DNA of 61,841 nucleotides, counting the filler. It is 11 parts of 11 records of this genome, joined end to end, with 100 filler letters (N's around TTAATTAATTAA, not from the genome) between each part and the next. Parts side by side here need not be neighbours in the genome. Positions count along the whole stretch, not along the records: positions 8,488 to 15,505 come from SRR7504441_12742; positions 15,606 to 20,735 come from SRR7504441_12743; positions 20,836 to 26,800 come from SRR7504441_12745; positions 26,901 to 31,621 come from SRR7504441_12780; positions 31,722 to 35,606 come from SRR7504441_12796; positions 35,707 to 39,145 come from SRR7504441_12800; positions 39,246 to 42,476 come from SRR7504441_12807; positions 42,577 to 46,102 come from SRR7504441_12808; 3 more parts are not named here. One strand, written 5' to 3'. Shown one piece after another: positions 11,964 to 58,571 of the stretch. Within the stretch, counting starts at the first letter, position 1, and every line of letters begins with the position of its first letter. A program made the position numbers and the translations under genes. The notes below the pieces were generated by a model. That model had not been told where the DNA came from, searched no databases, and saw only the letters and a list, made by a program, of their open reading frames with translations.

Positions 11964-12016
11964 CTCGCGGAACTGCCTGGTCATAACGGACTCTTGGCCC
12001 GGCTCGGAGGTTCGCA

Positions 12017-13240
12017 ATGGCCTTTCCAGAGGAGCTACCGCCTGCAGTGCGGACGCAGAGCCCCCACCCGGGGATGGCGAACCCACCCCAGACTAAGCCC
12101 GAGTCTGGGCCGAGGCCGATGGCGCTGCATGCAGCCTTGAGCCGCGTGGTGTCTGAGCACGAGACATCAGCTGGGGGTTCGCAGATCCACCTGCGCGCGC
12201 TCCTAATCACACACGATTCCACCCTCCATCCCCAGCTAGGCGTGCGCCTGGATGCGGCGAGTTCTTGGAACTGCCAGCTCCCGCTGCTCCGTCTCCACGA
12301 GGTCGCCATAGAGCACCTCCTGCCTTCGTTCACAGCAGCGGAACTCAATCAGCTGGGGACGGTCTGCAAGACACTCGCGGGACACTGCCGCGATAGCCGG
12401 GTTTGGTGCCGGCTGCTCGGTCACAACTGGCCGCAGCTGTTCATGCCCGAGCGCGTCCAGATGGAATGCGAACGGGAGATGTACCGCAAACTGCGGCGCT
12501 GTGACCCACCCTTGGCGTCGCCAAGATGCCCACCCGAGTGTACCGTGCCCTCAGACGTGCTGCTACTGCTCGAGCTGCGGCTGCCGACCCGAAACATCCA
12601 CTTGACGAGCAACTTCCCCCAAACAAGCATTGTCAGGACTGTGGATGCAGAGGCACGAGCTAGTGACGATAACTATCTACGTCGGTGTTTCGTGTTTAGC
12701 CACCCTGATGTATCCTGTCTCACAGAGGCATTTCAGAGAGGGACAGAGGCCACACTATTTCTCGTGCGTAAATTCGATGGCAAAGTGGTAAATATGCCAC
12801 TGGATAATATTGAATACGGAACCGACGCATTCGATGGCAATGGATTTCAGTATGAGGGCGTCCTTTGGCCATCACCAGGTGAGCTCCAGCTGCAGCGCCT
12901 CAGTACGTTTCGTGATGGCCTAGCGTCCACAGAGCTGAACGTCCAGTTGCTACAGATCTGGAAAGATGAAAAGGACGGCAAGCTTGATGAGCAGGACGAG
13001 CGAAATAATATCGTAGCCGACAAGGTGGCCTTGTTCATACAGATATGGGAGTGGACAGAAATGTATCACGATGCTGGATTGGGAGCCTACTATCCAGACG
13101 TTGGCATTGGGGATGATGTGGGAGAATGGATCCATCGCGCTTTTGATCAACACGATGTGGTTTTGGATCCAGAGGATAATAAGTGCGATTTTGAGGTTCC
13201 TGATATTCCAGACACACTCAGTGGGTTGGCATGGAAGTGA
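12017..13240 (+). CDS. F-box protein (start could be 12017, 12074 or 12119)
   Basis: LHEVAIEHLLPSFTAAELNQLGTVCKTL...VWCRL is an F-box pattern. Intronless 407-aa ORF. Confidence 0.7.
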   Translation: MAFPEELPPAVRTQSPHPGMANPPQTKPESGPRPMALHAALSRVVSEHETSAGGSQIHLRALLITHDSTLHPQLGVRLDAASSWNCQLPLLRLHEVAIEHLLPSFTAAELNQLGTVCKTLAGHCRDSRVWCRLLGHNWPQLFMPERVQMECEREMYRKLRRCDPPLASPRCPPECTVPSDVLLLLELRLPTRNIHLTSNFPQTSIVRTVDAEARASDDNYLRRCFVFSHPDVSCLTEAFQRGTEATLFLVRKFDGKVVNMPLDNIEYGTDAFDGNGFQYEGVLWPSPGELQLQRLSTFRDGLASTELNVQLLQIWKDEKDGKLDEQDERNNIVADKVALFIQIWEWTEMYHDAGLGAYYPDVGIGDDVGEWIHRAFDQHDVVLDPEDNKCDFEVPDIPDTLSGLAWK

Positions 13241-13611
13241 TAAGACCTGTTCGCAATCGTTTACACCAGTGCACGCGTCACATGTACAGAATGAATCCGA
13301 CGGTCCGAGTACCATACATGACTCAAACTTACATGCCTACATGCCCGGGCGTACGCGGGTGATTGCTTTAACGTTACTTATTGCACTGACTTGTCAATCA
13401 AGCAAAAGGCGACTCCAATCAAAGCAACTCGTGATGATTTATTCTCAGTTCAAGCCTGTCATAAGTAATTCAAGTATAACTTAGCTTGGCGTACATGTAC
13501 AGTACAATTTATGTTTATATCGCCCGATAAAACAAGAATTAAAGTGTGCTAAGTATAATTTTAAGGTCTCAATCAATTTATTAACTAAAGCGTGCGATTT
13601 CAGTGTGCGAT

Positions 13612-15505
13612 TTAGTCTGAGTCCGAGTCGGTCACATCGCTGCCGATATCAGATCCCACTTCGTCCGTGCTGTATTGCAGCTGCCTTCCCTTTGTCTGTA
13701 CGTCTCTAGATCTACTCGTAGATTTGTGTTTTGCTGGCTCCATCCGGTCCCACGCCTTCCGCCAGTGCTCGACTTCCTTCTTCAGCCAGGCGTCGTCCTC
13801 TTCTAGTATCACATCCGAGCGCTGCTTCTCCCATGGCAACCGCACTGGCACTCCCAGGATCCAACCCGGGCTTGTGGCCTGTTGCTTCTCTATACTTGAG
13901 ATTTTCGGCGGCACACCCCGGACTCCACCTGGGCTTGCACCCTCCTGCTTCTCTAGATGTGACATCACCGGCGGCGGCTGTGAGCTGTCCTCCTGAGTGC
14001 TCTGAGAGCCGCCACGCCGCTGAGTCGGCCGAGTCCTGTCCCACGTCTGGCGCCACATCTCAACTTCCCGTCGGACCCAGGCCGGGCTCCTCTCACCACC
14101 AGCGGGCTCCTCCCCAACTTGACTCAAATCAGCGTGCTCACCAGCGACGGTTATGTCTTTGAGCATGCCCAGCGTGCCCCGCATCGCTCTGAGCTGTTCC
14201 TCCAGCCCGTCGCTGCTCTCAAGTTCGACTACAGACATTGGCGGCGGAGAGTTTGGCTGAGACACACTACTGACGGCCTCAGGCGAACTTGCGGTTGCTG
14301 GACTGGTCTGCTTCTGGCTCCTGGTGAGCAGAATATCGTTCTTGACCTTTGACAGCCGCTCTGCACTCTGCAGGACATGGAGAGGATCGTTGAGCGCCGC
14401 CTGGGGCTCGCTCGCGTCTAGCATGAGTCGCCAGCCCAAGTACTCCATCCGGTCGCTCTCGGCCACCTGCTGGAGCTGCTCATCGAGCTGCTCGATAGCT
14501 CTCTCCTCACCCACCACCTTAGCACTCTCGAATGCTCGAATGATCTTGTCCAGTCGCTTCACCCTAAGGTCTTCCCCCGCCTTATGCTGACCAGCGCCCA
14601 ACGGCTTGACGCTACCATCGCTCGGCTGCTCGCCCAAGCTCCCGCCAGCCTCAGCGCAGGTCACCTCACTGCTCAACTGGCCGCTGCTCCATTTGTGCCA
14701 CACCGCGCCATCGTTCTCCCTTTGCTCCGGACTGCTCTTCGACCCGGTGCCGCTCCACTGGCTCCGCCCGAGCTGCGACTCCACCTCCACCAGCCTCTGC
14801 CGCAGCCGTTGCTCCCGCTCGATCTGCCCCTGGACCTCGCCAAGCCGCCGCTCCAGCTGATGCTCTCGCTCGCACTCAACCCCTTGCCCCATCGGGCTGC
14901 TCTGGCCAATCGGCCGGCTGGCTGCCATCGCAATCATCTCTCTGACTGGGCGTGTATCCCTGCCCTGCTGCTTGAGCCTTGCCTCGAGCCTCCCTGCTGC
15001 AAGCTTTAGCTCATCCTCCTCCCGATTCGCCGACCGGAGCAGCCTGGTGAGCGAAACTCCCGCAGCCATCACCTCCGTGGGCGGCTCAGGCAGACTCGCC
15101 AGTTGAGAGGGCTCGCAGCGGCTCTTGTCCACTCGAAACTCCGACTGGTGTGTCAACGAATCCGCAAGCTGCCTCTCCTGCTGCTTCTCTACCTCCTTCT
15201 GCGCGAGCTGACTCCTCAGTCGGGCCAGTTCTGCCTCCGCAGCCTGCCTCGCCGCCGATTCATCCCGAAGCTGAGTCTCGGCCTCATTCACACGTGCGAC
15301 ACTAGCCTCGGCTGCCTCGGCTACAATTTTGACCTTGGCGGACCTTCTGCGGTCGTGTGGGCTCCGGTGCTCACGCCTGCGGTAGATAGCAAGCGCCCTC
15401 TGCCTGGAAGCTTCCTTCGCCTCCGCCTCCGAAGCCGCCAGCTTAGCTGCCACCTCTTCAGCAGCCACCCTAGCTGCTTCATCCTCGGCTGCCTTCCTAG
15501 CTGCC
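13612..15505 (-). CDS. Coiled-coil / low-complexity hypothetical protein, 5' partial
   Basis: Open frame of more than 618 aa running to the linker, with E/Q/R/A-rich heptads. Confidence 0.7.
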
Positions 15506-15643
15506 NNNNNNNNNNNNNNNNNNNNNNNNNNNNNNNNNNNNNNNNNNNNTTAATTAATTAANNNNNNNNNNNNNNNNNNNNNNNNNNNNNNNNNNNNNNN
15601 NNNNNCAGCAATTTTCTCGTCTGGAGGCTCAGCAAAAAAATCG

Positions 15644-17248
15644 ATGGCGGCAGCGGCCCGGATCGAGTTCGGTCCAGGGCCACGGCCGGCCAAGCGGCCC
15701 CGACGCGGCCAGGCCGGCCGGTTGAGCTGCCCGCTGCTGCACTGGCTCGACCAGCACGGCGCCACCGGCCTGGAGCAGATTCGGATCGGCTCGAGCGGCG
15801 CAGCGGGCCTCGGCTTGTGGGCCAGCTCGGCCATCGAGCCCGGCCAGCCAGTGGTGGCCATCCCGGCCGAGTGCGTGCTCAGCCCGGCCAAGGCGGCTGG
15901 CAGCCAGCTGGCGCGGCGGCTGCGGGAGGCGCATGGGGGCGAGTGCCCGGAGGAGCTGGCAATGCTCGCTTGGATGGCCGAGGGACGCACCGACAAGGAC
16001 CACCCATTCCACCCGTACCTCGCGTCGCTGCCCGCTGGCCCATCTGGCGCCGGGTTCTGGCCGGCCGCCGACCTGGCCGGGTCCCGGCTGGCCCCGGCGG
16101 CACGCGCAGTGAAAGCGCAGTACCGCGCCCTGTACGAAAGATACTTGCTACCGGTGAACGGCGCTCCGTCGGTCGAGTTGTTTGAGTGGGCCGCGGACCA
16201 GTACCACGCCCGTCGGTTCCCGTGCGAGCTGGCGGGGGACGGGAGCAAGTCAGGCGGGATCATGCTGCCATTGCTCGATCTGATGAACCACCAGCCTGGG
16301 GCCCGAGCCACCTGGCGGTGCGCAGATGGCAGGGTGTCCATCGAGTTGGGCCAGCAAGCCAGGCCGGGCGACGAGCTATGGAACAACTACGGTCCTTTGC
16401 CCAACCACACGCTGCTGCTCCGTCAGGGGTTTGCGCTAAATCATAATTGCTACGACTGGTACCCACTGCGAGTGAGAACTGGCGGCAAGTTTCGCGGTGT
16501 GGCGTATATTAGGAAGCCGGACGCGCGGTGGGAGCAATTCCCGCCGGAGCTGTGGCGCTGGCTGGGTGGTGAGCAGCGCGGCGATTGGGTGCAGGTCGAG
16601 GAGGACCAGCTCCGCTCACTGTTGGACCAGGTTCAGGCCGAGCTGGCTGAACTAGACCCTGCGGCTGAGGCCGCTGCGTCCGTCTTGCCGACCACCGACG
16701 ATTCGACCGCTGTAGCGCTCACGTCTGATCTCCAGGAGGCCATTGCCGGGACAGGGTATGAAGAATATTTGTCCGAATTTGGGGATATCAAACAGACCAG
16801 CAGGAGCTGCGATTTCGGCGAGTTTTCAGCACCTCCGAGGCACCTGCCAGCGGCTGCGAAGCATGGGCACGCGCTCTCGTCCAGAATACGGTACTACCAG
16901 CTCAGACAGCTGTGCGAACAGCAGCTGGGCATCGCTGCTCCTACGCTGTGCGCCTGTTACAACAAGAGCAGGCCGAAGAGTTCGCGCTTCCAAGTCACCG
17001 TGTCGTGCTCGGCTTGCACTGTGCGGAAGACTGGGCGTGCGCTCGGCCAGACCGAGCGTATAGTGTTGAAGTCAGTCCAGAAGAAGTTAAGATCAAAGGC
17101 GCAGGGCAGCAGGTGCGAAGGCCCATACGAAAACGCGGGAAACGAGAGGGCGCGCTGGGTGGGGGTGTATCATGCGGGGCTCGTGCAAGTACTGGAGGAT
17201 GCGATTGATAGCCTGCGCGCATTTCTTGCTAAGCTCGAGTCAGACTAA
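15644..17248 (+). CDS. SET-domain protein lysine methyltransferase (Rubisco LSMT/SETD3/Rkm type)
   Basis: GLGLWASSAIEPG, FHPYLASLP, MLPLLDLMNH and GDELWNNYGPLPNHTLLLRQGF. Confidence 0.9.
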   Translation: MAAAARIEFGPGPRPAKRPRRGQAGRLSCPLLHWLDQHGATGLEQIRIGSSGAAGLGLWASSAIEPGQPVVAIPAECVLSPAKAAGSQLARRLREAHGGECPEELAMLAWMAEGRTDKDHPFHPYLASLPAGPSGAGFWPAADLAGSRLAPAARAVKAQYRALYERYLLPVNGAPSVELFEWAADQYHARRFPCELAGDGSKSGGIMLPLLDLMNHQPGARATWRCADGRVSIELGQQARPGDELWNNYGPLPNHTLLLRQGFALNHNCYDWYPLRVRTGGKFRGVAYIRKPDARWEQFPPELWRWLGGEQRGDWVQVEEDQLRSLLDQVQAELAELDPAAEAAASVLPTTDDSTAVALTSDLQEAIAGTGYEEYLSEFGDIKQTSRSCDFGEFSAPPRHLPAAAKHGHALSSRIRYYQLRQLCEQQLGIAAPTLCACYNKSRPKSSRFQVTVSCSACTVRKTGRALGQTERIVLKSVQKKLRSKAQGSRCEGPYENAGNERARWVGVYHAGLVQVLEDAIDSLRAFLAKLESD

Positions 17249-17456
17249 GTCAGACAAGGTACATTACATATAAGCTTATATGACTACATAAGTACATACT
17301 CGTAGGACAACCGTGACAACGGATCACCCGCGCACCCTACGTACAACCAGCGGCGTAATTGTATAGATCCAGCGGCGGGCCCGCGTACAGGCGCTCTGTC
17401 ACTAAGAGGCTAAGTCTTCGCATTGCAATGCTATGGTCACGATATGACCACCAGCT

Positions 17457-18881: not shown

Positions 18882-20337
18882 TCAACCATGCTCGCCTTGG
18901 GCGATTACACCGTTCTTTTTCTCAACAAGCCAATCCCCGACACTGCTCGCCGACGAGGGCTCGCCCTGTGGAGCCTTTTTGTTCATTGCCGATATCAGCA
19001 TTTGCTTGAATTCGCCGACCCCTTCCGTCTGCTTGGGCGGACTATCACCGTTCAGCATCGCGGTGAGCCTGTCCACGCGCTGCTGGGCCGCCTGTCGGGT
19101 CTCATTAAACTCGAGTAGGGCCTGTCGCAGGTCGGTCTTGGATCCGTTAGGTTTCTGGGTCCGATCCTCCTTGAAAGTCCTAATCTGGGCCTAAACCATC
19201 CTCAGCTCAGCAGCCATGGCCAGCGCTATGCGGCCACGGACTAGCAGTGACCCTCAGACTGTTGTGTAAAAAAGTGAACAGTTACCGCTACCAGTTACAT
19301 AAGACGCGTCACACACAGTGACGCGGACTGGAGAGAGAGTGCCACCTCCACATCTTCAAGCGTCTCCATCTGTCGCCGCATTTCTTTTAACTCCGCCTGC
19401 CCATCCAGATTGCAGTGCACAGTGGGTGCGCTCACCCTCAGGCACGCCGATTCATCCTCAGCCGCCTGGGCCCGAGCCGACTCCGCCGCCAGCTCGTGGC
19501 TGCTCTCCGCGGCCTGGGCTTGAGCCGCCTTCTCGCCCATGGCCTTGAGAATGATAGCCTTTGCCGCCATTGCGGCGGCTTCCGCAGTGTCCTCCTCCCC
19601 AGCGGCCCCTGCACCCTCAGCGCTAGACTGCTCAGCTTGCGTCCCGTCGGCGGGCTGGTCCGGCTGGGCTGCGGCTTTACTCCGGTACAGCTGCTGCAGC
19701 TCGCCGATCTCATCGTCCAAGGCCGCCACCTCGGCCTCGATCGCCTCGCGCCGCTCCGGCGATTCCTCCTGCATCAGTTGCTGGGCCAGCTCCGACAGCT
19801 GCTGATTCTTGGCCTGGATCTGGGCCTGTAGGGACTCGACGCTCTTCCCGCGGGCGCGCTGCGCCACAGGCGTCAGAGAGAACTGCTTCCTGTAGAGCTT
19901 CTGTAACTTGGGTACCTATCACCGGCACTCAGCTGCTTTGCCACCCGACCCACCACCTCATTCTCCAGCGTGGCGATCTTCCGCTCGAGCCCCCGCCGCC
20001 TGTGGCCGGGTGAGCGGTGCTGAGCGCCTGGTCCACCTGGTCGGGTTGCGTTCGCCCATCAGCTTCTGAGCGAGGTCGCACAGCTCCTTGTTCTTGTCCT
20101 CGATCTGCCTCTGCATTGACGCCAAGGCATCGCTCGATGGCATCGTCCCCGCGGCCCGGGCAAGGTCGCTGACTATCCGAGAGTGGCCATGCCCCGCCCC
20201 GCTCGGTGTGGCAGAGGACCGAGTGTGGCCCAGCGCTGCATGATTGAGTCCAAATCCAACGGCAGCCGCAGCCCATCAAAGTCATCCGCGCAATGTGGTG
20301 TTCCGCGGGCCTTGGTGGCGCACTCGCACGATGACAT
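18882..20337 (-). CDS. Multi-intron coiled-coil protein with a duplicated ~53-aa helical module
   Basis: ORF pieces 19958..20143, 19295..19867 and 18882..19076 join via GT-AG introns (e.g. 20173-20219, 19191-19345). Start is uncertain (20337 or 20143). Confidence 0.6.
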
Positions 20338-22067: not shown

Positions 22068-23580
22068 CTAACACCCCGCTAGCATTGCTTCCATCTGTTG
22101 CTTCCCAAAGTCGCTCTTGGTTTGCTCCCACCCGACCGGTTTCTCGTCAACCCTGTTACCGTCTCCCGCATGCTGAGCCACAAAACGCCGGACTGCCTCG
22201 CAGTAGAGCTCCTGGTCGTACATCGGAATCATCATGTGGCCGGCGTGCTGCGAGCATGACACCACCTGCCGCCCGCTCCCCGGGCGCCTGTATTCAAGCA
22301 CCAGATCTGCACTCGGATGCCGCTCCCGCGTTTGATTTATGAACTCTTCTGTCAGCTCCGGCAGCACCAGCTTATCCGCCTTACTGTACAGGAACAGCCT
22401 CGCCACTCCGAGCGAGTGCCTCGCATCGCACTCAAAGGCTGCTCGCCTGGCACGCTAACTGTCAGTCGCCCACTCGCAGGCCCACCCGACTAGTCCTTTA
22501 GGTTTCCTCATCGCAGCCAGTGCCGGGTTATGCCCCTCCCGCGCCAGCGCCTCAAACTGCTGCTTGATCCGGTTCTCATTGGACCCGAGCCCTAGGTATC
22601 TATCTACTGTGTGCACCACTCCCTGCCACGGACTCTCAGACTCCCTCTGAGCAGCCTAGCCCCACCAGTGCATACACCGGCAGCGTGGCCACTCTGGACT
22701 CGTCCTCCAGCAGTGCCGGCGAGCAGTCAAACACCAGCCCCCGCAACACTGCTGCTAGCTCTGGCCACATCGCCCCATCCTCTCCCGTGCCCCAGCCGGC
22801 AGCAAGCTCCGTCCAGGCGTAGAACCCACTGTTAGAGCACAGATGTACCACCAGCCGCGGCGTTTCACCCAACGCACCGGCAAGCCTCGACCGAATTTGG
22901 TCCAGCGCGGCCCGCCGGAGCTTGGAGTGTGTCGGAGCCGTGCACGAAATCACCTGCCAATCAGATCAGAGCTGAATCGGCCAGCCAGCCGCCTCGCATC
23001 CGAGCGCTGCGTACAGCTTGGCTAGCGGATCGAGCATATCCACAGAGCTGCCGCCATAACCGAGCAGCAGCCCCACACAGCGGGCGGCGTCCGGCAGCCC
23101 CTGGACAGCGCGGTGCGCCACCGCCTCCTCGGCCGGCGGTCTCTGCCGGACCACAGCGCACGAAAGCGAGTTGCCGTACTGCAGCATCAGCGAGAAGGCG
23201 GCTGTGGCCACCGCCGGCTCCGTGCTCGGGTCTGCGGCGGTCTGGTGAAGCGCCGACAGTGTACACCTAAGCGCGGCGCCCACAGCCGCCTCGTCTTGCC
23301 CGCCGAGCAGCCGGGACAGCTGGTCGTCCAGACAGCCCACCGCCTCGGGCGAGACTAGCCAGTCCTCCAGCCCGTCCTCAACCAGCTCGGCTGCGCTGGA
23401 CGGCTCTCCGTCGGAGTCAAACCAGCGCCGCACCGCCCGGCTCGGCCAGTGCCCGGCCCTGCGGGCAGTCAATCAGCGACTGCCGAGCGGATGGGGGTGC
23501 CCGGCTGGCGCCTGCAGCCCGAACACCGAGTCGCTCTCCAGCTCGCGCACCAGCCCGCTGCTCGGCCCATCACAGGACAT
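22068..23580 (-). CDS. TMEM53: TMEM53/DUF829-family alpha/beta-hydrolase-fold protein, about 5 introns
   Basis: VGLLLGYGG, VVHLCSNSG, GLVFDCSPA, RLFLYSKADKLV and SQHAGH are spread across ORFs 22966..23472, 22636..22953 and 22068..22406, joined by ~39-53-nt introns. Confidence 0.75.
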
Positions 23581-23650
23581 ATGTCCAGCCTCGCCACCCG
23601 CTGCAGCGCAGCCTCCCCTACCTTGGAGCGTTTTGTCCGTTATTATGTGC

Positions 23651-25332: not shown

Positions 25333-26709
25333 TTACTCCGGTACGAGCGCCAAGTCTAAGACCTCTATCTTGGCGCCTCCAGCCTTCTGCAGAGCACGTG
25401 CCAGAGCGGCTCCGCCAACTCCGACCACCGGACTCAGAAACCCGGTGTGCTCAAGCCCGCCCTCGGGCAGCCGCTTGGCGAGCAGTCCGGCCACGGCGCA
25501 GGCGGATATCATGGTAAACCCGATCCCAGCGTCGTAATGACTGGACAGACTCACACGGACAGATCTGCCATCAGTTGCGTCGCCATATCCAGTGACTGTG
25601 AATCCTCCTGTCTTCTGGAAACCGTCCAACAGCTGACTCTTGAGTCGCCTGCGCGCCGGCTGATTGGCCCAGCTGACCAGCCAGACCAGCCATCCGAACA
25701 ACCCGACGCAGGCCAGCCAGGACACGAACGCCATGACAGCATACTGCACAGCAGTCGGCACAAGGCCATAGAGGCTCCACTTAGTGTACTCCCGACTGAA
25801 CGCGATCCGCTCGCGGTAGCGGACTTGGCTGTATCCGAGCTCGGTGGCGCTCTTGCGCACAACTTTGCAGTTGATCACATCCATCACGCAGTTGCCTGTG
25901 AACCCAACCCTGTGCGAGTAGGCCGGAAGCTGGTTCCAAACCAAGTCCGACAGCGCCCTATCGCGCGCCGCCGGGCTCAGCAGCCCGGCGCCAAACACTT
26001 CGGTGTCCTTCCCGAGTATGCCGCACGAGAGCCTGTAGATCGCCTTGCTCCGAAGGGCGCTCACAAGCCCCGCCGCAGTGAGCAGCGTGCCAGTGGGCGC
26101 CGCCCCGCCGCCCTCCCCGCGGACAAACGCCTCCATCCGGGCCAACTTGCCCTCCCGGCCGCCCCGATTCAGGCTGTCGGCGGCCAGGAAGGTGAGCAGG
26201 TCCGCCGGAACCGAATCGAACCCGGCACACGAGACTAGCCGGACGCCCTTGGCCTCGGCTTCCTGCCCGTACTTGCGGGCCATCAGGTCGACCCAGGGCC
26301 CCTCCCCGGTGATATCGCAGTAGTCGGTCTGGGCCTCGATGCACGCCCGTACCACCCCTTCGCCGTACTGCGCGAAGGGACCGGCCGCCGCCAGCACCAC
26401 CTTGGCCTTGCGGGCCATAGCCAGCAGCGAGCTCGGGTCGGAGGCGTCGGCCTGGATCGGCGGGGCCATGGCCAGCCCGCCGGGCCCGGGCGGGGGCAGC
26501 TGGTCCACGATCTGACTCTGGAGCTTGGCCAGGCTCCGACAGGCGGCTGTCCAGCTCTTGACCCCGACGCTGCCCGCCTTGAAGTGCAGGAAGCAGGTGG
26601 CCGCAGTCCCTGTGTCACCCGTGGCCCCGAAGACCACAACGTCCAGCGGTCGCTTCTCGCGCTCCGAGGCCCGGAGCCGGGCAGTCCTGCCCGCCAGGTC
26701 GAAGTCCAT
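25333..26709 (-). CDS. SCCPDH: Saccharopine dehydrogenase-like oxidoreductase
   Basis: VVFGATGDTG, AAGPFAQYGEGVVRAC, YCDITGE and GFDSVPADL, with a hydrophobic segment near the C-terminus. Confidence 0.88.
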   Translation of the reverse strand: MDFDLAGRTARLRASEREKRPLDVVVFGATGDTGTAATCFLHFKAGSVGVKSWTAACRSLAKLQSQIVDQLPPPGPGGLAMAPPIQADASDPSSLLAMARKAKVVLAAAGPFAQYGEGVVRACIEAQTDYCDITGEGPWVDLMARKYGQEAEAKGVRLVSCAGFDSVPADLLTFLAADSLNRGGREGKLARMEAFVRGEGGGAAPTGTLLTAAGLVSALRSKAIYRLSCGILGKDTEVFGAGLLSPAARDRALSDLVWNQLPAYSHRVGFTGNCVMDVINCKVVRKSATELGYSQVRYRERIAFSREYTKWSLYGLVPTAVQYAVMAFVSWLACVGLFGWLVWLVSWANQPARRRLKSQLLDGFQKTGGFTVTGYGDATDGRSVRVSLSSHYDAGIGFTMISACAVAGLLAKRLPEGGLEHTGFLSPVVGVGGAALARALQKAGGAKIEVLDLALVPE

Positions 26710-31322: not shown

Positions 31323-31721
31323 GACGCTTAGAATTAACTAGGGACTAGGAGTTCTGACTCAGCTCGGTACCACGGTTTTTATCTCACACTAGATCTAGCT
31401 AGCATATGCATGCATTCATTTGTTACATGTACGCGCATTCTTCATTACTACTAGTTTGTAGAGCGCGCCGATGGCGCGCACGTATTTGGTAGGGTTTAGG
31501 AATGTTGCTATATGATTGTTATTCGAATTAAGATCGATTTTAAATGTCAACGTAGAAACATCGAAGATCTTTCCGTTGGCCATGGAGCCGACCGGTGTGG
31601 ACAGAGTCAAGGAGCTGCCGCNNNNNNNNNNNNNNNNNNNNNNNNNNNNNNNNNNNNNNNNNNNNTTAATTAATTAANNNNNNNNNNNNNNNNNNNNNNN
31701 NNNNNNNNNNNNNNNNNNNNN

Positions 31722-39145: not shown

Positions 39146-39331
39146 NNNNNNNNNNNNNNNNNNNNNNNNNNNNNNNNNNNNNNNNNNNNTTAATTAATTA
39201 ANNNNNNNNNNNNNNNNNNNNNNNNNNNNNNNNNNNNNNNNNNNNTTATCGGCTTGGCACGGGCATTGGGGTCGATGACCGTGACCAGGCGCCGGCGCCT
39301 CGGAAGGCCAGCTCACCCCTTCGCCGAGCAG

Positions 39332-39434
39332 TGTCATCCTGTTCATCGGCCCGCTCGGCGCACAGGATGACATGTCATTCTGTAGTCGAAAATGACATGA
39401 CAGATTCTCATGTCAGATTCTCATGTCATCCTGT
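39332..39434. promoter_or_regulatory. TGACA/TGTCA-rich palindromic cluster upstream of folD
   Basis: Seven TGACA/TGTCA copies. 13-bp inverted repeat 39362-39374/39422-39434. Tandem CAGATTCTCATGT x2 at 39401-39426. Confidence 0.45.
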
Positions 39435-39481
39435 ACACCATAAGAAGTGGCCTAACGGACCTCGCTACCTGCAAGGGGGAA

Positions 39482-40549
39482 ATGCGCGCCGCCTGCCGCG
39501 TCCTAGGGCCGGCCGGGCTGGCATTCAGCTGCTCTCCGTGGGCGCGGACCGAGGCCGTCCCGATCGATGGCAAGCGCTGGGCCAGGATCATCCGGGATGA
39601 GGCAAGGCTGGAGGCGGCGCTGGTGAGCCAGCGGCTCGGCCGGCCGCCCGGGCTGGCGGTGCTGATGGTGGGTCACCGGCGGGATTCGTCGGTGTACGTG
39701 CGGATGAAGACCAAGGCCTGCGCGGAGGCCGGGGTGTTTGGGCAGACGGTGAGCGTTGGGGATGATGTGAGCCAGAGCGCGATGCTCGGGCTGATCGACA
39801 GACTGAACACCGACGAGCTGGTCGACGGCATACTGGTCCAGCTGCCGCTCCCGCCGCACCTGGACGAGCGGCAGATTCTGGACCGGATCCTGCCGGCCAA
39901 GGACGTGGACGGATTCAATCCGGTCAATATGGGCCAGCTGGCCACCAGGGCCGGACAGCCGCTGTTTGTGCCGTGCACTCCGAGCGGGTGCATCGAGCTG
40001 CTAGATCGGGAGGGCATCCCGATCAGCGGGAAGAAGGCGGTTATCCTCGGCCGGAGTGACATCGTCGGGCTGCCGATGGCGCTGCTGTTACTCAAACGGA
40101 ATGCGACAGTGACTGTGTGCCACAGCAGGACTCCGAACGTGCGGGAGGAGGCCCAGCGGGCAGATATACTCGTGGCCGCAGTCGGCCGGCCGGAGATGGT
40201 GCGGGCCGACTGGGTGAAGCCTGGGGCGGTGGTGATAGACGTGGGGATCAATTCGGTGCCTGACCCTAGCAAAAAGTCGGGGTATCGGCTGGTTGGCGAC
40301 GTGGCGAAGCAAGAGGTTAGTGCTGTGGCCCAGTATATCACTCCGGTGCCGGGCGGAGTGGGCCCAATGACTGTGGCCATGCTGGTGGCCAACACTGTGG
40401 CGAGCGCTAGCAGGAGGATTGCGCCGACAGAGCTTGCCGAGACCGAGCATGACAAGACAGCTAAGACAGTGCTAAAGAATCCGCTAGACTTGCCTCCAAT
40501 CTCCGATGAGTTGGCGGCTCAGCCCGAAGCAACCCGGAGCAATGCGTAA
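39482..40549 (+). CDS. folD: Methylenetetrahydrofolate dehydrogenase/cyclohydrolase (FolD), probably organelle-targeted
   Basis: PIDGK, YVRMK, DGILVQLPLP, KDVDGF, PCTP, GRSDIVG and ITPVPGGVGPMTVAML. Short R/A-rich N-terminal leader from ATG 39482. Confidence 0.95.
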   Translation: MRAACRVLGPAGLAFSCSPWARTEAVPIDGKRWARIIRDEARLEAALVSQRLGRPPGLAVLMVGHRRDSSVYVRMKTKACAEAGVFGQTVSVGDDVSQSAMLGLIDRLNTDELVDGILVQLPLPPHLDERQILDRILPAKDVDGFNPVNMGQLATRAGQPLFVPCTPSGCIELLDREGIPISGKKAVILGRSDIVGLPMALLLLKRNATVTVCHSRTPNVREEAQRADILVAAVGRPEMVRADWVKPGAVVIDVGINSVPDPSKKSGYRLVGDVAKQEVSAVAQYITPVPGGVGPMTVAMLVANTVASASRRIAPTELAETEHDKTAKTVLKNPLDLPPISDELAAQPEATRSNA

Positions 40550-41973: not shown

Positions 41974-42108
41974 TAGTTCCGCGGTGGGTCTTTTCTTGAG
42001 TCTTTTCGCTACATTCATTCTCGAGTACCGTTAGACCTCTTCCCGCCATCAGTTCGTCCAGGCCATCAGCGACTGCACCGTGATGGGACTCTGCACAGCT
42101 AACCCGCC

Positions 42109-43371: not shown

Positions 43372-43434
43372 GGCCGGAGTGTGAAGTCCGTTACAGTAAC
43401 CGCGCCGCGCCGTCCACGGCGTGCAGTCTCCAGA

Positions 43435-46366: not shown

Positions 46367-48061
46367 TCAAGCTGCAGGTGAGGCCGTGAATTGCCGAAGA
46401 AGAGCCCTGGTGGCATCTTCATTAGACACGACACGGCCTTGCTGAATCGTCTGCTTGGCCAGTGGCACAGCCATCATGTTGTACATCATCGATTGCTCCT
46501 CGGTGAATCGCATTTCATTCTCTACACTGCGAGGGCCCTGCAAGCCGTCACTTAATTGCTCCAGATTGGCACACAGCTGCACCTGTGGCACAACTCCCGG
46601 TCTGCAGCTCCAGTGATCGAGCATTGCCACCATTTGGTTGGTCATGCCCTGCGTCCCGATGGTCAACGCCCCCCGGCACTCCACCTCCATCGCGCTATTC
46701 ACATCGCCCTCGTGATCCGTCACAATCTTGAGGAGCTGCCTCGTCAGTCCGCACACCTGCAGCCATGCGTTCACCCACGCGGCTCCCGCAGCTGTTGCCT
46801 TGTCGAATGAGCAGGCACGGAAGATTGCCTTGCCCACCGCCTCGTGCGCAAGAGCCATTGTGATCTGCCGGTTCCGTTAGCAGCAGTAGAGCGACAGTCA
46901 CACGTATCGCATAAGCACTCGGGCTACATTGTTGATGGCCATTCCCATGCCATGCACCACAGACCACAGCGCCTTCCGAGACAGAGCTATCATGTCATCC
47001 ATAAACGGCTCCCAGCCGCCAGCCATGAAGAAGGCGGCCGATCGTTCCATATCCGCAGAGCCAAACCCTAGATCCATCCCATTAGCTCAACACAGGCCGG
47101 ACAGCCCACCGCCGTCGGACCGGTGTCGGTCTCCGCGGAGCACTGTAGACACCACGAACTGCCCGAGCGAGTAGCCGCACCACTCGTGATGCCTCTCGGT
47201 GGACACCTCGTACGCCTCCTCCTGGAACATCGTGCAGACGGCCTGCCACAGCCCCACTGGCTCCACCCGCTCTGCAGCTGCACACAGCTCGTCGTCATCA
47301 GTCACAGGCGTGCCATCGAGTGGTGCCAGCCGGGCCGGTCCAGACTGGAGCAGCTGGTCTACGAGCGCAGCAGCCCGAGTCCGTAGCTGCTCCGATGGCT
47401 CCGCGGCGTCAGGGTACGCATAGAACCGAGCAACCGGCAGCTCACCACCCGCAGTGCTGTTGCTTGCGCCGGAGCCCCAGGTCCTGAGCATCTTGGCCAG
47501 CTCACCGTGCCCGTTGAGCTCGGCCATGCTCGCCGCGTCCATCCCGTCCGTGGTGGCCGACAGCTGGGCCGCGTCGTTCTTGAGCAACAGTAGCGCCGCC
47601 CGGCCCTCACCCATCATCGCTGCGGCCATCAGGCCCGTCATCCCGTCAGCCCCCGCCTGGTCCCGCGCCCCGCGCTCGAGCAGCAGCTCGAGCACCTCCA
47701 GGTGTGACCGGCCTTCCCCCAGCACTGCGAAGGCCACCGGGTTCAGCCCCGCCTCGTTCGCTGCATTCGGGTCAGCCCCGGCGTCCAAAAGCATCCGGCA
47801 CACGCCGGCGTGGCCCTTGATGGCAGCCCAGCACAGCCCAGTGCCGGTCACGTCGCGGGCATCCACATCGATCCCCGGCTCGCTGGCCAGCAGCCCAGCC
47901 ACCCCGGTGGCGTCCCCGGCGGCGGCCAGCCGTACCACCGCAGGCGCGTCGTCCCGCGGAGGAGCCACCACCACTTGCTCACTGCGGACGGAAGCGCTCG
48001 CCTGCGGCTTGGCCTTGGCCTTGGCCTTCTTTTTGCCCGCGTTCCGCGCCTTCTTACCCAT
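46367..48061 (-). CDS. Ankyrin-repeat protein with basic N-terminus and unknown helical C-domain, 2 introns
   Basis: GTGLCWAAIKGH..LLDAGADPN and GMTGLMAAAMMG. ORFs 47087..48061 and 46367..46858 are bridged by an exon reading FGSADMERSAAFFMAGGWEPF. Confidence 0.75.
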
Positions 48062-48184
48062 GCCCCGCGTTCCGCGCCTTCTTACCTACCCACCACCCGC
48101 GTTCCCGGGCCGGTGATCTCGAGTAACGGACTGACAGTAACGGAAGGCCGCTCGGCTTACGACGCGCCCTCCAGCCCTCTCAAC

Positions 48185-49182
48185 ATGGCAGAACCGGTCC
48201 TCGTATTAGATACATGTGTGACGCGAGCCAGTGGCGACGACTCCACTGGGCGCGCACCGCACTTCTTCTGGGCGTCTTCGGACGGGCTAAGTCTGGTGCT
48301 GCAGAAGCTCGATCCGGCCTGTGCAAGCTCATCCAGGTGAACCAGGCACTCAAGCAGAGCGGCCAGACCAGCTGCGCCTGGCCCCGGCTGTATGACGCCC
48401 GGTGGCACTGCCGGCTCGGGTGCGAGCAGCCGTCCCCGACCATCGACGACTTCCGCCGACGTCATGTCGCCGAGCAATGTCCGGGAGAGCGGAGCCCGTT
48501 CGGACCGCCTGACGACGCCGCTAACGAGACCTACGAGTTCCACCTGACGGTCAGGGAGCTTGAGACGAGCGTTGGAAACGCGCTCGTTTCAAGCTTCAAA
48601 GGCCGATCATGTTGGGGGCCGCAATGGGCCGCGCATGTGAGAGGATCGCCCTCGCACCTCGTGGCGGCCGGCCAGGCGCAGTTGGCACTCCGATGCACTG
48701 AAGATGCGTACACTAGCCTGACAATCAACAGTCAGGTCGAGCCCGATCGTGAGCAGCCCACTGGAGAAGCCAGCATGGAACCACGGCCCTATCTGTACGC
48801 AACGCTGATGTGCCGGCGCCAGTCCGATGGGGCTCTAGCTTGTCTGTTCGGCGACAAGTCACCAACTTCCGACTACCGCGACCACCAAGACACTCTGACT
48901 AAGTTCAGCGCAGAGTTTTCAATCCCTGTTGGGTTCTTCCGGCCTGGGGAGGAGGACTATGAAATAGTGTTCAGCGTCCATTGTGAGGTTTCTATTGTGC
49001 ACGATGATATACATGAGCCTATCGCGTATGAGTGGGACAAGTATACTTTGAGCTTCAAGAGACACGTTTTTGAAAGATGCACTGAAGATACTTACCAGGC
49101 TCCCTACGATGAAGTTGACAACATGGAATCGCAAAAGGAATTGCTATCAGCATTTTCGATGGCTCGCATCCAATGGAAGTGA
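48185..49182 (+). CDS. F-box-like protein with a frame break in the F-box; paralog of 12017..13240
   Basis: SDGLSLVLQKLDPA (frame of ATG 48185) continues as LCKLIQVNQAL..WPRLY in another frame. Shares the ATL..R..DG motif with the other F-box protein. Confidence 0.55.
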
Positions 49183-49396
49183 CCTAGAAGCACCGTTATG
49201 CTCAAGGTGTACGTGTGTTTCTACACAGCAATCGTGGTATCATCACGGTCACAATCATACGAGTACAAGTCATTATCCCTAAGCGAAACTAGCGGTNNNN
49301 NNNNNNNNNNNNNNNNNNNNNNNNNNNNNNNNNNNNNNNNTTAATTAATTAANNNNNNNNNNNNNNNNNNNNNNNNNNNNNNNNNNNNNNNNNNNN

Positions 49397-52300: not shown

Positions 52301-52836
52301 GAGCCAGCGTGAATGCGGCAGCTTTAAATGGGAGCACTCCAGCACACGCTGCAGCAGCTGGTGGCCGGCTCAACACGCTCATCTTGCTGGGCGATCTAGG
52401 TGCAAGAATCGACACCCCAGGTGGGCGTGCACAACACGGCTGCTTGTCTGATTGTGGGCGTTGGCCAGGCCCAAATGGATGCACGCCGATTCATGTTGCA
52501 GCATCTAAAGGGTACCAGGCTGTGGTGGCAGCTCTGGCAAGGATGGGCGCGGACACGAGTGGTGAAGTCAGAGCGACCCAGGTAGGATTACCGAGGCAGA
52601 AGCGAAGGCTCGATGCAGATCAGGTTATAACGCACAGCCTGCGGATGCTGAGCCAATGCGCCTGTGCAGTTGGTAGAGGAGCTCAGTGGCCTATCGCAGC
52701 AAAGCTCCGAGCTACGTCAGCAGATGCTCCTGTGGCGCAAGATGCTCCAGAAAGCTCAACCGCAAGAGGACAAGGCAGGTCCGTAGCCACTCGTAAAGCA
52801 GCCGAATGGGAGATGTATCATCGTACGTATAAGTAG
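49397..52836 (+). CDS. Class II histone deacetylase (HDAC6/Hda1/Clr3-like) with acidic N-terminus, AIG2/GGCT-like domain and ankyrin repeats; 5' partial
   Basis: After removing short introns (e.g. 50383-50425): [53 protein letters not shown] and LEGGY. Ankyrins [10 protein letters not shown] and [13 protein letters not shown]. 3' end is uncertain. Confidence 0.9.
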
Positions 52837-53727: not shown

Positions 53728-53783
53728 GCCTGGCCTGGGCTCGCAGGTGTTCCGTTGTGCCGTTATAAATTGACCGGAGAGCT

Positions 53784-54984
53784 ATGCTGTGCAGGTGTCC
53801 AATGGCCTGTTCATGTAGCTGGCCCTTTCGAGTCTGACGGGGCTGGCAGGTCAGCCTTTGCTCGGGGGCTGGTTCTGGTGCTGGCGGCCGGTCTGCCGTG
53901 TGCCCGGCCTCTCCCGAACATCACGCGACTCGGAACCTGGGACCTGGGCATAGTGGAGACCACGCCGGTGGTAGTCCAAGGCCGGTTGCTGCTCTACGTC
54001 AACTCGGCCGAGCAGCCCTGCAGCGACGCCAACGGCGGCTGCACTCCACGGGCGGACAAACAGATCGGCAACTCCCGGTTTATCGATGTGCTGACGGGCG
54101 AGACGGTAGGCGAGCCGTTCGGGGCGGGCGAGGGGCTGGGGTCCGCGCTGTACGAGCCCGAGACTGGCCTGATGCATGTCTTCGCGACCCTCTGCCAGCC
54201 GCCACCGTTCATCAAGGGCAAGAGCTGCACTGTGCAGGTGTACAGCAGTCCCGCGGCAACGCTGAGCAACTGGACCCGAACCACCGCCATCGACGCTGCC
54301 GACAAATGGAACGCCAAGCACAACACCACCCTGTGGAACACCAGCGTGGGCAAAGGAAAGGTCAACGGCACTGGAATGTACGTCATGGCCTTCGAAACTG
54401 ATTTAGACTACTGGACTACACGGTTTGCAGTGGCCCCGAGCCCGACCGGCCCATGGTCGGTGCTGGATGTCGAGTCGGTTTATATTAGCGACCCGACCCT
54501 CGAGACGGCGAACCCTACTCTCCGCTACAACAGTGTGGACGGGTACTGGTATTGCTTCACCGGTAGGAAGAGCCCGGATGCCTGGTTTTTCTTTATGGAG
54601 CTTTTCCGCGCCAGAGAGATCACAGGCCCGTGGCTGCCGGCACCGGGCATGGGCAACAAGAGCGCCGTGGGTATTCCAATGCTCGCACCAACAACCGCAG
54701 CGGAAGTGGCGGCGGACAGATCGCTGGTGCCGCAGGCGTGGAAGCGGGACAAGGCCCGTTACGACTTTGTGTCGTCGCTGCAGCCGTGGTGGGAGAGTTC
54801 GGATGACGTGAACAATTCGGATCTTGACCTTGTGGAGTATAACAACACAGACCCTACGCTTGGGCCAACAGGACCGATGGTCGTGATGACTTATTGTTGG
54901 GGTAGCCAGCACAGCAACAACGGGCTTGGGCTAGCTATTTCACCCGGGGTTACGTTGGATCAATTCATGTCAAGCTTCTTTTGA
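53784..54984 (+). CDS. Secreted beta-propeller glycosidase-like protein (GH32/43/130-like fold)
   Basis: ATG 53784 plus intron 53795-53849 gives MLCRSAFARGLVLVLAAG. ETTPVVVQGRL, WNTSV, YVMAFE, ANPTLRY and NNSDLDLVE. Confidence 0.6.
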
Positions 54985-55076
54985 GCACTAGGCCGGCATT
55001 GAAGTCACTACTAAGCAAAATATTAATCATAATGACTAACTGACTATAACTGACTAGTGAGCACTACTAAAGTCCG

Positions 55077-56537
55077 CTAAGTCTTGTTCGCCCCCTTGAA
55101 AAACGAACCCGTACCATAGCGATTAACGCTGCCTTGAAACATGAGCTTGAACGCGCTCGGCTTTTTACTCGGTTTCTCAACGCCGGCTCCAACCCGATTG
55201 CTCTCCTCCCTCAGTGGCATCGGATGCTCCCCTCCAACTTCGCTCGGTTTGACGGCTGTGGCTGCACTGGCTGGTGGGCCTGGCTCCAGCAGCTCGAGCG
55301 CCCTTCCCAGCTCCTCCACCTCAGCGGCCTCCGGCTGCTTATCCTGGTCTCGCAGCTTGGCAGCCAGCTCGCGTGTATCATTAACAGCTCCTCGCAGCTC
55401 CGCCCCACCCCCGGCCTCGAGCACAGCCTGAAGCTCAAGCACCTCGGCCGCCTCCGCATCACATCCGGCCGCCCTCAACTTGGCTGCTACTGTTCCAGCT
55501 GCCGTGGCCGCCTCTGCCTGCCGAACCGCGCTAATTCCCTTGAACCAGCCTTTGGATTGAGCCTGCACCTGTGCCAGCGCCTGGTTGGCGGCCGCCTTTT
55601 TGTCGCCAGAAGTGTGCAGCCCGTCGACGATTTCACTCAGGTCCGTGACTGGGCCTCCACCGAGCGCGCCGGCCGGCGCTTTGGTAAGCGATGGTCCCAT
55701 CGCCCTCTGCTGCACCCCAGCCTGGACTCGAGCCAGGAGCTCCAGCTGATCTAGCCCCCCCTGCCTGACAGGACTGCCCGCCACACCCCGACGGCCGGCC
55801 GTCCCTAGCTCGAGCTGCTCGGTCGGCCTCCTCTTCCGGCGCTGCTCGCGCTTGTGATTGGCCTCTTGCATAAGCCTCTCCACTGTACTCTGCAACTCTC
55901 TGACAACCCAGGTCCGGCCCGCGAGCTCCTTCTGCGCGTCGCTGAACATGGCCTCGATCTGTTGCACGGCCTCGTGCTCGGCCTCGTAGAACTCCCACGC
56001 CTTGCCCAGCTCCGCCTCCTTCTCCTCCAGCGCCGCCTTCAGCCCCAACAGCTCCTGCGCATGCCCCTCCGACAGCGCCAACAGCGCCTTCTCGGCCGTC
56101 TCGGCTCGCTCGGTCAGCGCCTCCTCCCGCTGGCCGGCCTTTGAGTTCCGGGCCTCCAGGCTACTCAGCCGGCTCTCTCGCTCCGCCAGCCGGTTGTCCA
56201 ACGACCGCAGCCGCACCGCCAGGTCTGCTTCGAGTGATCCGGCGAGCACGCTAGACAGGTCGGCCTGACGCAGCCGGTACGGGGTCTGGCAGACGTGGCA
56301 GCAGCCCGGGAGCCCGGCGTCGCCCCGGGTGGGGTTTGCGAGCACCTTGAGCCTCCAGGCCAGCAGCGAGCGTTCTATCAGCTTGCGGGCGCTCTGCTGG
56401 TGCCACAGCCGGCAGCCAGGGCAGTCCAGCCAGCTGCGCGAGTACCAGCCGTTCCGGCTCCCCCCCGCAGTCGTCACCCACGCCGCCCGCCCTGCCGGCG
56501 GCGAGTCTGACTGGCTGATGAGCGGAGCTTGGACCAT
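55077..56537 (-). CDS. Coiled-coil protein with degenerate RING-like Cys motifs
   Basis: ATG 56537. CPGC..H...W...CHVCQTPY, followed by long heptads. Confidence 0.6.
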   Translation of the reverse strand: MVQAPLISQSDSPPAGRAAWVTTAGGSRNGWYSRSWLDCPGCRLWHQQSARKLIERSLLAWRLKVLANPTRGDAGLPGCCHVCQTPYRLRQADLSSVLAGSLEADLAVRLRSLDNRLAERESRLSSLEARNSKAGQREEALTERAETAEKALLALSEGHAQELLGLKAALEEKEAELGKAWEFYEAEHEAVQQIEAMFSDAQKELAGRTWVVRELQSTVERLMQEANHKREQRRKRRPTEQLELGTAGRRGVAGSPVRQGGLDQLELLARVQAGVQQRAMGPSLTKAPAGALGGGPVTDLSEIVDGLHTSGDKKAAANQALAQVQAQSKGWFKGISAVRQAEAATAAGTVAAKLRAAGCDAEAAEVLELQAVLEAGGGAELRGAVNDTRELAAKLRDQDKQPEAAEVEELGRALELLEPGPPASAATAVKPSEVGGEHPMPLREESNRVGAGVEKPSKKPSAFKLMFQGSVNRYGTGSFFKGANKT

Positions 56538-56579
56538 CTCGCCAAACCAAATCGTGTGTGAAATTTCCTGAGGACAGAA

Positions 56580-57203
56580 ATGGCCACGGTGCGTGGGATC
56601 GTCACAGCCGTGGAGCGCCCGAGCGGCAGCGGCGGCGCGGAGCACCCCAGGAGCGGGGTGGCCGAGGAGCTGGCGGTGCTTTCGATGGGCTGCTTCTGGA
56701 AGGCTGAGGCTCTGCTCGGCGGGGTGCCTGGGGTGCTGGCCACCGACGCCGGGTACGTGGCCGGAGCCGAGGCCGCCCGTTGCAAGTTCGACCCTTCGGT
56801 GACCGGCTTCGACGCGCTGCTCGACCTGTTCGAGCAGTCACTCGCGTCGGCCCAACAGTGGAAGAATAGCAAGTACTGCTCGGCTGTCTACCCCCGGACG
56901 GAGGCCCAAAGCGCAGCCGCCATCGCCCGGTTCGGGCCGGATCTGGTCCGCGAGTTCCGCGGGTTCCGACTGGCTGCCCGGACGGACCAGAAGTAGCCTG
57001 TGCTGCCGGAGGGGTCTGACCGGCCGGGCAGGTATTACCTTCAGCACACCCCGGCCGGGCGCAAGCTGGGTGCCCGGGTGCAGCAGCCAGCCGGGCCGGA
57101 GCGGAGCAGAATGCTGGCGAAGGCGAACTATGCGGCGGCCCAGGCTGCAGGCCTGGGGCTGTCAGGATGCGGCTCTGGCGCCTGCCGGCTGGCCAGTGCG
57201 TGA
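56580..57203 (+). CDS. msrA: Peptide methionine sulfoxide reductase A-like protein
   Basis: MGCFW, GVLATDAGY, FDP..F..LLDLF and YCSAVY. Intron 56993-57031 restores DQKYYLQH. Confidence 0.85.
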
Positions 57204-57897
57204 AAGCAGGCCAATTCCGGTCCCAACATCGGGCTGCAGGCGCTGCAGGCCTCCTATCGTCCTCTGCGCGGAGGTTGCGGCCAACGGCCCGTGTCGAGCC
57301 GTGAGGAGCGCTCTAATGTGATTGCTTCTCCTGAGGCAGGGAACCATGACTGCAAGACTCTCTCGGAGCAATCTCAGCCACATCTGGTGCAGATTTGTGA
57401 AGGGGGATGGCCGGGCTGAGCTGGCACTTGCTAGCGAACTCCGGCTGCTGAAACGCTCCGAGGGCAGTCTCTCCTACAGTACGCAGAGCATTGCGAAGAT
57501 GCCATGGCGACGGTCAATCAGATACGCTAGCCGAATGGTCATGCGTGTATGCGTGCATGTGAACGTGTAGGTAGCATGCGACCTTAATGCGACCTCAAAC
57601 CCTCTAGCGATCTAAAATTTACTTGCAACCTCAAACCCTCTCGCGAGAAATCCTCGGAGTCACGCACTCGGACGGTATGAGCACCACTGGCGCGGCGCTT
57701 TGTATTGCAACTTGTGCTCCTTTATTACAAGCACTTCTAGGCAGCAACCTATGGGCTTCTGTTGCTGCTACTCCTACTCCTACTTCTCACTGTGAATACC
57801 GCTGCCATCACTGGTGCGGCGTGCCGCCTATCACTGTCTGTCGCTGTCTCTCTGCATGGCACACCAGCCACCCCCCGCTCTTCCCTCGGCGACCGCT

Positions 57898-58499
57898 CTA
57901 GCTAACCTTGGCCAGGGCTGCCTGTACTGTCTTGAGGATCAGCTTCAGCTCAGTCACAACGCTGGCGGTCTGCCCCCCACCCCAACAGTCAGTCCCTCCC
58001 CTCGGCCCACTGTGCCTATCAACATCTCATCCAGCCAGCAGGCCACACACCTTCACGGCCTTCTCCTTCTTCGCCGGCTTGGAGCGCTTCAACGGCTTTG
58101 TGCCCTGCGCCCCCGACTCAGTCTCAGCAGGCCGGCAGGCCGACTCACCTGAGCGGGGAGGGTGCCTCGATGGTACTCTGCGTTCTCTACTATGTCGCTT
58201 GCCTTGCGCTTGCGGGTGCCACTGATCTTCAGCGCCTGGATCTCCCACGCGCTGCCAGAGGATGACTCCGGCACGCCCGGCTTGACGCCCTTGCGCAGCT
58301 TGGGCGCGGCCTTCTTCGCTGACTTCTTGGCGGGGGTGGCCTTCTTCGCGGACTTCTTGGCCGGCGGGGCCTTCTTGGCGGAAGGCTTCTTGGCCGGCGG
58401 GGCCTTCTTGGCCGGGGTCTTCTTGGGCGCTGTCTTCTTCTTCGGGGCCTGCGGAGCAGCCGTCAGTGGCGCTGTTGGCTCCAACAGCGAACGTACCAT
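57898..58499 (-). CDS. Histone H1-like Lys/Ala/Pro-rich protein without a winged-helix domain
   Basis: ATG plus intron 58449-58496 gives MAPKKKTAPKKTPAKKAPPAKK. Further introns follow; the last exon is uncertain. Confidence 0.65.
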
Positions 58500-58571
58500 G
58501 GAGATCAGTGTTGGTTTGTCCTGGCGTAACGGTTTCAGGATAACCGCCTGAAGCTGACCAACGGCATAACA

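Follow-up and report, generated by a model that had tools for sequence, protein, structure and literature searches.

TAACGG, a word of short divergent-gene spacers in a compact marine protist, as a candidate Myb-type promoter site

The DNA analyzed here (the window) comprises 61,841 nucleotides, N-linkers included, from a compact eukaryote, a marine protist. It is not one continuous stretch but a sample of 11 short contigs of 3.1-12.4 kb each, with N-linkers between them. Its subject is the six-base word TAACGG (CCGTTA on the opposite strand), which was found in seven of the eight head-to-head spacers of the window, the intervals between a minus-strand gene and the plus-strand gene that follows it. 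The word is very probably a real promoter-associated element. We suggest that a Myb-type factor uses it as a general site, in either orientation and for both genes of a pair, a reading to which we give about an even chance (roughly 0.5). All motif counts reported below refer to these 61 kb with approximately 25 gene starts.

The gene map was built from stop-to-stop open reading frames (ORFs), a codon log-odds profile of coding potential, and start-codon contexts. The genes are densely packed in DNA of approximately 58-60% G+C, and the domains recognized among the 36 ORFs scanned (HECT, WWE, SET, ankyrin, histone deacetylase, and CAP/ShK) mark them as eukaryotic. Exactly eight head-to-head spacers were found, with lengths of 32-123 nt between the innermost candidate ATGs and a summed length of 516 nt. 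The whole window contains 15 exact copies of TAACGG, of which 8 lie in these spacers, on six contigs; a divergent pair usually has one exact copy, and one pair (S5) has two. A preliminary description made from the sequence alone had claimed the word for seven of eight such spacers, and this was borne out, with all 15 copies recovered and the same number of spacers obtained in an independent gene map. The spacers are as follows.

S1, 11985-12016: one copy at 11984..11989, plus strand, touching the first minus-strand ATG (11984); it is 20 nt from the alternative minus-strand ATG at 11963 and 27 nt from the plus-strand ATG at 12017.
S2, 23581-23644: one copy at 23637..23642, minus strand, 2-8 nt ahead of the plus-strand ATG (23645 or 23651).
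S3, 42019-42082: one copy at 42028..42033, minus strand, between a CAP/ShK gene on the minus strand (candidate ATG 42018 or 41973) and a plus-strand gene (ATG 42083 or 42109).
S4, 43372-43434: one copy at 43388..43393, minus strand, between a GST gene (minus) and a beta-helix gene (plus); the variant TAACCG at 43397 points in the opposite direction to the exact copy.
S5, 48062-48184: two copies at 48124 and 48138 (together 48124..48143), both on the plus strand, between an ankyrin gene (minus) and an unnamed plus-strand gene.
S6, 53728-53783: one copy at 53760..53765, minus strand, between a GST-like gene (minus) and a plus-strand gene; the variant CAACGG at 53752 has the orientation of the exact copy.
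S7, 56538-56579: a head-to-head spacer of 42 nt that has no copy.
S8, 58500-58571: one copy at 58527..58532, plus strand, between a lysine-rich H1-like gene (minus) and a LisH-type gene (plus); the variants TAACCG at 58541 and CAACGG at 58559 are oriented as the exact copy.

The word is thus on the plus strand in three of these spacers and on the minus strand in four, in agreement with the earlier statement that both orientations occur. Its distance to the ATG ranges from touching (approximately 0) to 84 nt. Alternative start codons exist at S1, S2, S3, S5, and S6, and the first exon of the minus-strand gene at S2 is uncertain. The copy count is unaffected by the choice of ATG, as no copy lies outside the outermost candidate ATGs.

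The number of copies in the whole window is not raised (15 against 11.66 ± 3.17 expected, with 15 reached in 20 of 100 shuffles); the signal is in the placement of the copies. Because the word had been picked after the sequence had been seen, it was ranked among all 6-mers of the spacers (468 in canonical form, from spacers drawn slightly wider, at 586 nt) by comparison with the rest of the window. TAACGG came out on top: it occupies 8 of the 594 word positions in the spacers and 7 of the 60,262 elsewhere (Fisher p = 4.8e-13, or approximately 1e-9 when corrected for 2,080 words), and the runners-up AACGGA, GTAACG, ATAACG, and ACGGAC all overlap it. Dinucleotide-preserving shuffles of the spacers contained 0.27 copies on average and 4 at most, and none of 20,000 reached 8. 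Base composition is not the cause, since the G+C content of the spacers (57.7%) is similar to that of the genes. The thirteen 3′ spacers (2,722 nt, 44.9% G+C) contain a single copy, compared with 8 in 634 nt of 5′ spacer (odds ratio 35, p = 1.2e-5). Confident coding sequence (43,008 nt) contains 2 copies compared with 8.07 ± 2.78 expected under within-gene codon permutation, a mild depletion (P(≤2) = 0.01 in 2,000 permutations), and this scarcity fits selection against stray sites. When the four one-way 5′ regions described below are added, the contrast becomes 12 against 3 copies (p = 8.6e-18), for a set drawn up with the copy positions known. The preliminary description had staked its interpretation on an enrichment upstream of start codons over other regions, and the interpretation survived this comparison within the window, the word being rare in both 3′ spacers and coding sequence.

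It could be argued that the pattern arose by chance, or that the gene models or base composition produced it as an artifact, given that the window count is near expectation (15 against 11.7), that the motif was chosen after inspection, and that some start codons are uncertain. We regard this as extremely improbable, since the word leads the scan of all 6-mers even after correction, no spacer shuffle matches the observed number, and the outcome is the same whichever alternative ATG is taken.

The preliminary description had also noted only a handful of copies elsewhere. The copies outside the divergent spacers are indeed few, namely seven, but four of them are themselves in probable one-way 5′ regions; two others are in long reading frames and one is in a 3′ spacer.

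39453..39458, plus strand: sense, 23 nt ahead of the in-frame ATG 39482 of folD.
1835..1840, minus strand: antisense to the gene, 22 nt ahead of ATG 1863 of a large HECT gene.
19144..19149, minus strand: sense, 85 nt ahead of the minus-strand ATG 19058 of an uncertain gene model.
46874..46879, minus strand: sense, 15 nt ahead of the minus-strand ATG 46858, which has an AATGGC context.
49193..49198, minus strand: 10 nt past the stop codon that ends the plus-strand gene 48214-49182 and approximately 100 nt from the contig end.
45486..45491, plus strand: inside a long beta-helix reading frame, with G as the next base.
54756..54761, minus strand: inside the reading frame 53827-54984, with G as the next base.

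In the one-way 5′ regions both orientations occur, and the word is sense in three of four cases, 15-85 nt ahead of the ATG. The claim that a copy lies just upstream of folD holds if the gene starts at ATG 39482 and fails if it starts at ATG 39410, which would place the copy inside the frame. The start at 39482 is the likely one, given that in the 39410 frame the conserved enzyme sequence starts only at residue 52 and that coding potential is low before approximately 39540. The copy at 1835 sits in a stretch that lacks coding potential, behind ORFs with WWE domains, and this region is probably a one-way promoter unless the WWE and HECT ORFs form one gene. The region of the copy at 19144 is also a probable one-way 5′ region. 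If 46367-48061 is a single gene, the copy at 46874 could alternatively be a branch site (CTAAC type) within a small intron; the AATGGC context of the ATG next to it is common to the start codons of many genes in the window. The copy at 49193 was counted as the only one in a 3′ spacer. The two copies inside reading frames (45486 and 54756) are probably due to chance, and the G that follows the word sets them apart from the promoter copies.

Several other sequence features were observed close to these copies. Just upstream of folD, the region 39330-39440 carries five to six copies of TGTCAT/ATGACAT in direct and inverted arrangement, including a palindrome at 39362-39383 and 26-nt arms with 81% complementarity; it may be a second, gene-specific cluster of putative binding sites. 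At 1762-1808, just upstream of the TAACGG copy at 1835, a 15-nt word is present in two perfect copies, 32 nt apart. At 48036-48086, a perfect 23-nt direct repeat with a spacing of 28 nt spans the start codon of the ankyrin gene, such that the ATG is within one copy and the other copy is in spacer S5. This repeat is a recent small tandem duplication inside the two-way promoter. Beside S8, the lysine-rich H1-like gene (57699-58499, minus strand) encodes AKKP-type repeats, is interrupted by two small introns, and carries a poly(A) site at 57699; it is spliced and poly(A)-tailed in contigs from RNA libraries. This stretch drew most of the RNA-library contigs (four metatranscriptomes), many of them only 90-95% alike, which probably come from other organisms with similar low-complexity sequence.

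The anatomy of the element was examined by aligning the flanks of the ten copies classed as promoter copies, i.e., the eight spacer copies and those at 39453 and 46874, all of which are exact TAACGG. The base before the word is A in three, C in three, and G in four copies and never T. The first base after GG is A in seven, T in two, and C in one, and the second is C in five, A in four, and T in one. The extended form can be written as V-TAACGG-A-M, with approximately 8-9 informative bases. The possibility that a shared repeat lies behind the sites was ruled out: the similarity among the ten copies ends at approximately 9 bases, and therefore the sites are not pieces of one repeat. CTCGAG adjoins the motif in S3 and S5 and was rejected as a part of the element since, with 48 copies, it is common everywhere. 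With respect to the variants named in the preliminary description, TAACCG is weakly enriched (2 copies in spacers and 13 elsewhere; with the wider set of 5′ regions, 4 and 11), and to this extent the proposal stands. CAACGG was rejected as a variant, with 2 copies in spacers against 38 outside, and the copy of CAACGG/CCGTTG at 31573 that had been listed among the variants is not an upstream site, because it is inside a reading frame, directly behind an ATG.

The word is tied to 5′ regions, occurs in both orientations, has unrelated neighbors, and is seldom found in 3′ spacers or coding sequence; this is the profile of a double-stranded DNA site for a general promoter factor. The neighbors had been described as functionally unrelated, and the genes identified here (encoding beta-helix proteins, GSTs, ankyrin, CAP/ShK, H1-like, and LisH proteins, as well as folD) confirm it. 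We suggest that a single sequence-specific protein of the Myb/SANT type (R2R3 or 3R, c-Myb-like) might bind the double-stranded site in either orientation. Sitting in the middle of a spacer of 30-120 bp, such a factor would keep the spacer open and/or recruit the transcription machinery for both divergent genes, and the same factor could serve single genes in tandem arrangements. It would then be a general promoter factor and not the switch of one regulon. On this reading the word would act on DNA rather than RNA, both genes would be served, and the rule would hold genome-wide. The Myb-type identity of the reader is predicted from the sequence, the core being equal to YAACGG.

Action at the RNA level has to be considered as well. 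The word might be a 5′-leader element for translation or stability, or it might be an initiator at which transcripts begin. The sense orientation of the word in three of the four one-way cases, 15-85 nt ahead of the ATG, would suit such a role. The leaders must moreover be very short because the spacers are so short, and they may include the word. However, the copy at 1835 is antisense to the sole gene it can serve, the distance to the ATG is variable, and with the single copy that a divergent pair usually has, one of the two genes would go without. We consider a role of this type quite improbable.

A second possibility is that TAACGG is a Myb-type site of one regulon, such as cell-cycle or growth genes, and that its apparent generality is a small-sample effect. 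According to the accessible text of one study, sites of the AACGG/MSA type mark G2/M genes in plants and animals (PMC5405339). Only approximately 25 gene starts were available here, and the word is missing from the S7 pair and from the gene at 26709. Nevertheless, it is present in seven of eight divergent spacers and beside very different genes (for secreted beta-helix and CAP/ShK proteins, GSTs, folD, H1-like and ankyrin proteins, and an E3 ligase). One regulon is an improbable explanation, because a single regulon would not cover approximately 80% of randomly sampled promoters.

A number of observations weigh against the proposal of a general Myb-type site. Spacer S7, the one exception among the eight, contains neither TAACGG nor any one-mismatch variant of it, and the 91 nt ahead of ATG 26709 lack the exact copy as well as TAACCG and CAACGG, the only forms sought there. 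A fixed distance to the ATG was sought and not found (approximately 0-84 nt), nor was a fixed orientation relative to the ATG; such variability in distance would be unexpected of a strict core-promoter element, for which the spacing is set. The sample is limited to 61 kb and approximately 25 gene starts, some of which are uncertain in start codon or first exon (S2, S3, S5, and S6). No RNA contig crossing a spacer was seen in the four RNA runs, in which uncovered parts carry no information. A scan for DNA of relatives with the 885-aa protein encoded beside S4 gave one unrelated metagenome locus with 24% identity; it has a dense, bacteria-like ORF layout and 1 TAACGG compared with 3.9 expected, and is useless for replication. 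No Myb domain was present in any of the 36 window ORFs scanned. The flanks of the ten promoter copies mismatch the plant MSA consensus, (T/C)C(T/C)AACGG(T/C)(T/C)A with AACGG as its core, as given in the available part of the source (PMC5405339).

The last two points also bear on the question of whether TAACGG is a real promoter signal read by another protein family, be it a factor private to the lineage or a component of the basal machinery, in which case the likeness to Myb sites would be a six-base coincidence. Only the 6-base core matches Myb sites, and the flanking preferences (non-T before the word; A and then C or A after GG) differ from those of the MSA element. It should be considered, on the other hand, that YAACGG is the textbook c-Myb-type site and that the Myb/SANT domain is among the most widespread DNA-binding domains of eukaryotes, both of which count against a non-Myb reader. 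Private promoter-binding proteins do occur in protists, IBP39 of Trichomonas being one, as far as the accessible text of the report goes (PMC4693282). The AACGG core is the Myb core (PMC5405339, in the part available), and positive evidence for any other family is absent. A reader of another family is, in our view, unlikely, although it deserves serious attention. Returning to the Myb-type site, the preliminary assignment to Myb/MSA stands for the YAACGG core and falls for the MSA flanks, and the earlier interpretation as a whole is partly supported.

A more far-reaching version of the proposal is that one Myb-type site has become the genome-wide core promoter, so that a word of 8-9 bases in a spacer of 30-120 bp would launch both genes in either orientation and would be purged from coding sequence. 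We regard this as doubtful. If such a takeover were true, it would represent a minimal, near-universal eukaryotic promoter.

The sequencing data and the gene map yielded some further observations. The six sequencing runs used contain just 5-10% of the sampled words, and four of them are RNA runs, used in contig form. The contigs of these four runs support small introns and one poly(A) site. They join across small GT..AG stretches of 38-81 nt, which were read as introns (intron-like stretches at 52417-52464, 57970-58050, 58104-58147, 58664-58701, and 59534-59574). At many places, two ORFs in the same frame, both coding by score, are split by a single stop codon (in-frame stops at 22455, 22966, 28725, 36339, 36591, 41499, 47087, and 56994). 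A variant genetic code was rejected as the cause because TGA ends both HECT genes normally, at the end of the domain, and because the RNA contigs show small introns. The in-frame stops are best explained as small unspliced introns that contain a stop codon and have a length that is a multiple of three. The 5′ spacers are 32-123 nt long with a gene-like G+C content of 58%, and the 3′ spacers are 68-700 nt long with 45%. A telonemid affinity of the organism would fit poorly with this very compact layout, since a 2026 preprint on single-cell genomes ranks Telonemia with the largest genomes and those low in exon content (bioRxiv 10.64898/2026.04.17.719054).

Outside a handful of parasites, little is understood about how streamlined eukaryotes accommodate a pair of promoters within a few dozen bases. 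Should a single short word and a single factor prove to mark the majority of promoters in a free-living marine protist, they would provide a simple handle for locating gene starts in fragmentary assemblies of uncultured relatives, as well as a candidate minimal promoter for genetic tools. The finding, if true, would also add to Trichomonas a second, independent instance of promoters being defined by a Myb-like site, and it would bear on the evolutionary replacement of the usual TATA and initiator elements.

The closest match by sequence is the MSA/c-Myb site of 3R-Myb proteins in plants and animals, with which the YAACGG core is shared, all ten promoter copies being exact TAACGG. The MSA element is functional in both orientations, and the word is found in both orientations here. 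The comparisons with it refer to the accessible portion of the source (PMC5405339). Its flanks are not kept in our set, in which A follows GG in seven of ten copies. The MSA element is the mark of a G2/M regulon, and its usual place is somewhere in the hundreds of bases upstream, whereas TAACGG marks most sampled promoters and lies 0-84 nt from the ATG. The neighboring genes (GSTs, beta-helix, CAP/ShK, folD, ankyrin, H1-like, LisH, and the HECT ligase) are, by their identity, not a cell-cycle set. Because of the mismatching flanks and the nature of these genes, TAACGG is, strictly speaking, no MSA element.

A similar arrangement has been described for Trichomonas vaginalis, in which the M3 motif resembles a Myb recognition element, has the Myb-like protein M3BP as its binding partner, and contributes to the selection of transcript starts, according to the parts of the two reports that are available (PMC4693282; bioRxiv 10.1101/603894). 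As in the window, a Myb-site-like word is found near the gene starts of a protist with very short leaders and beside unrelated genes; the copies studied here are 0-84 nt from candidate ATGs. M3 is a promoter element and not a distant enhancer, and the same is proposed for TAACGG. In the available text, M3 is confined to approximately 25% of the Trichomonas genes, those without an initiator, whereas TAACGG is present in seven of eight divergent spacers. Furthermore, the start-site role and the binding protein of M3 were established by experiment, whereas TAACGG is known from sequence alone.

By function, the yeast Myb-like general regulatory factors Rap1 and Reb1 provide another precedent. These factors, which act at promoters of many genes with no common function, also shape divergent transcription; they resemble the present case in having a short site that is used in either orientation in many unrelated promoters, often between divergent units, as far as the source is accessible (PMC6602560). 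The same features, i.e., many unrelated promoters and either orientation, were found for TAACGG within the 61 kb, in seven of eight divergent spacers. By analogy, the likeness fits a role of the putative factor in holding the spacer open and setting direction. The recognition words of Reb1 and Rap1 differ from TAACGG. In the accessible text, each yeast factor covers a minority of promoters, whereas TAACGG is present in most of those sampled.

In the literature, nothing was found on telonemid promoters or on TAACGG in bidirectional promoters of protists. Both ingredients, promoters defined by a Myb-like word and divergent promoters occupied by a general factor, are already known from the systems compared above. 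What would be new, if true, is the near-universal use of such a word in the tiny two-way promoters of a free-living protist.

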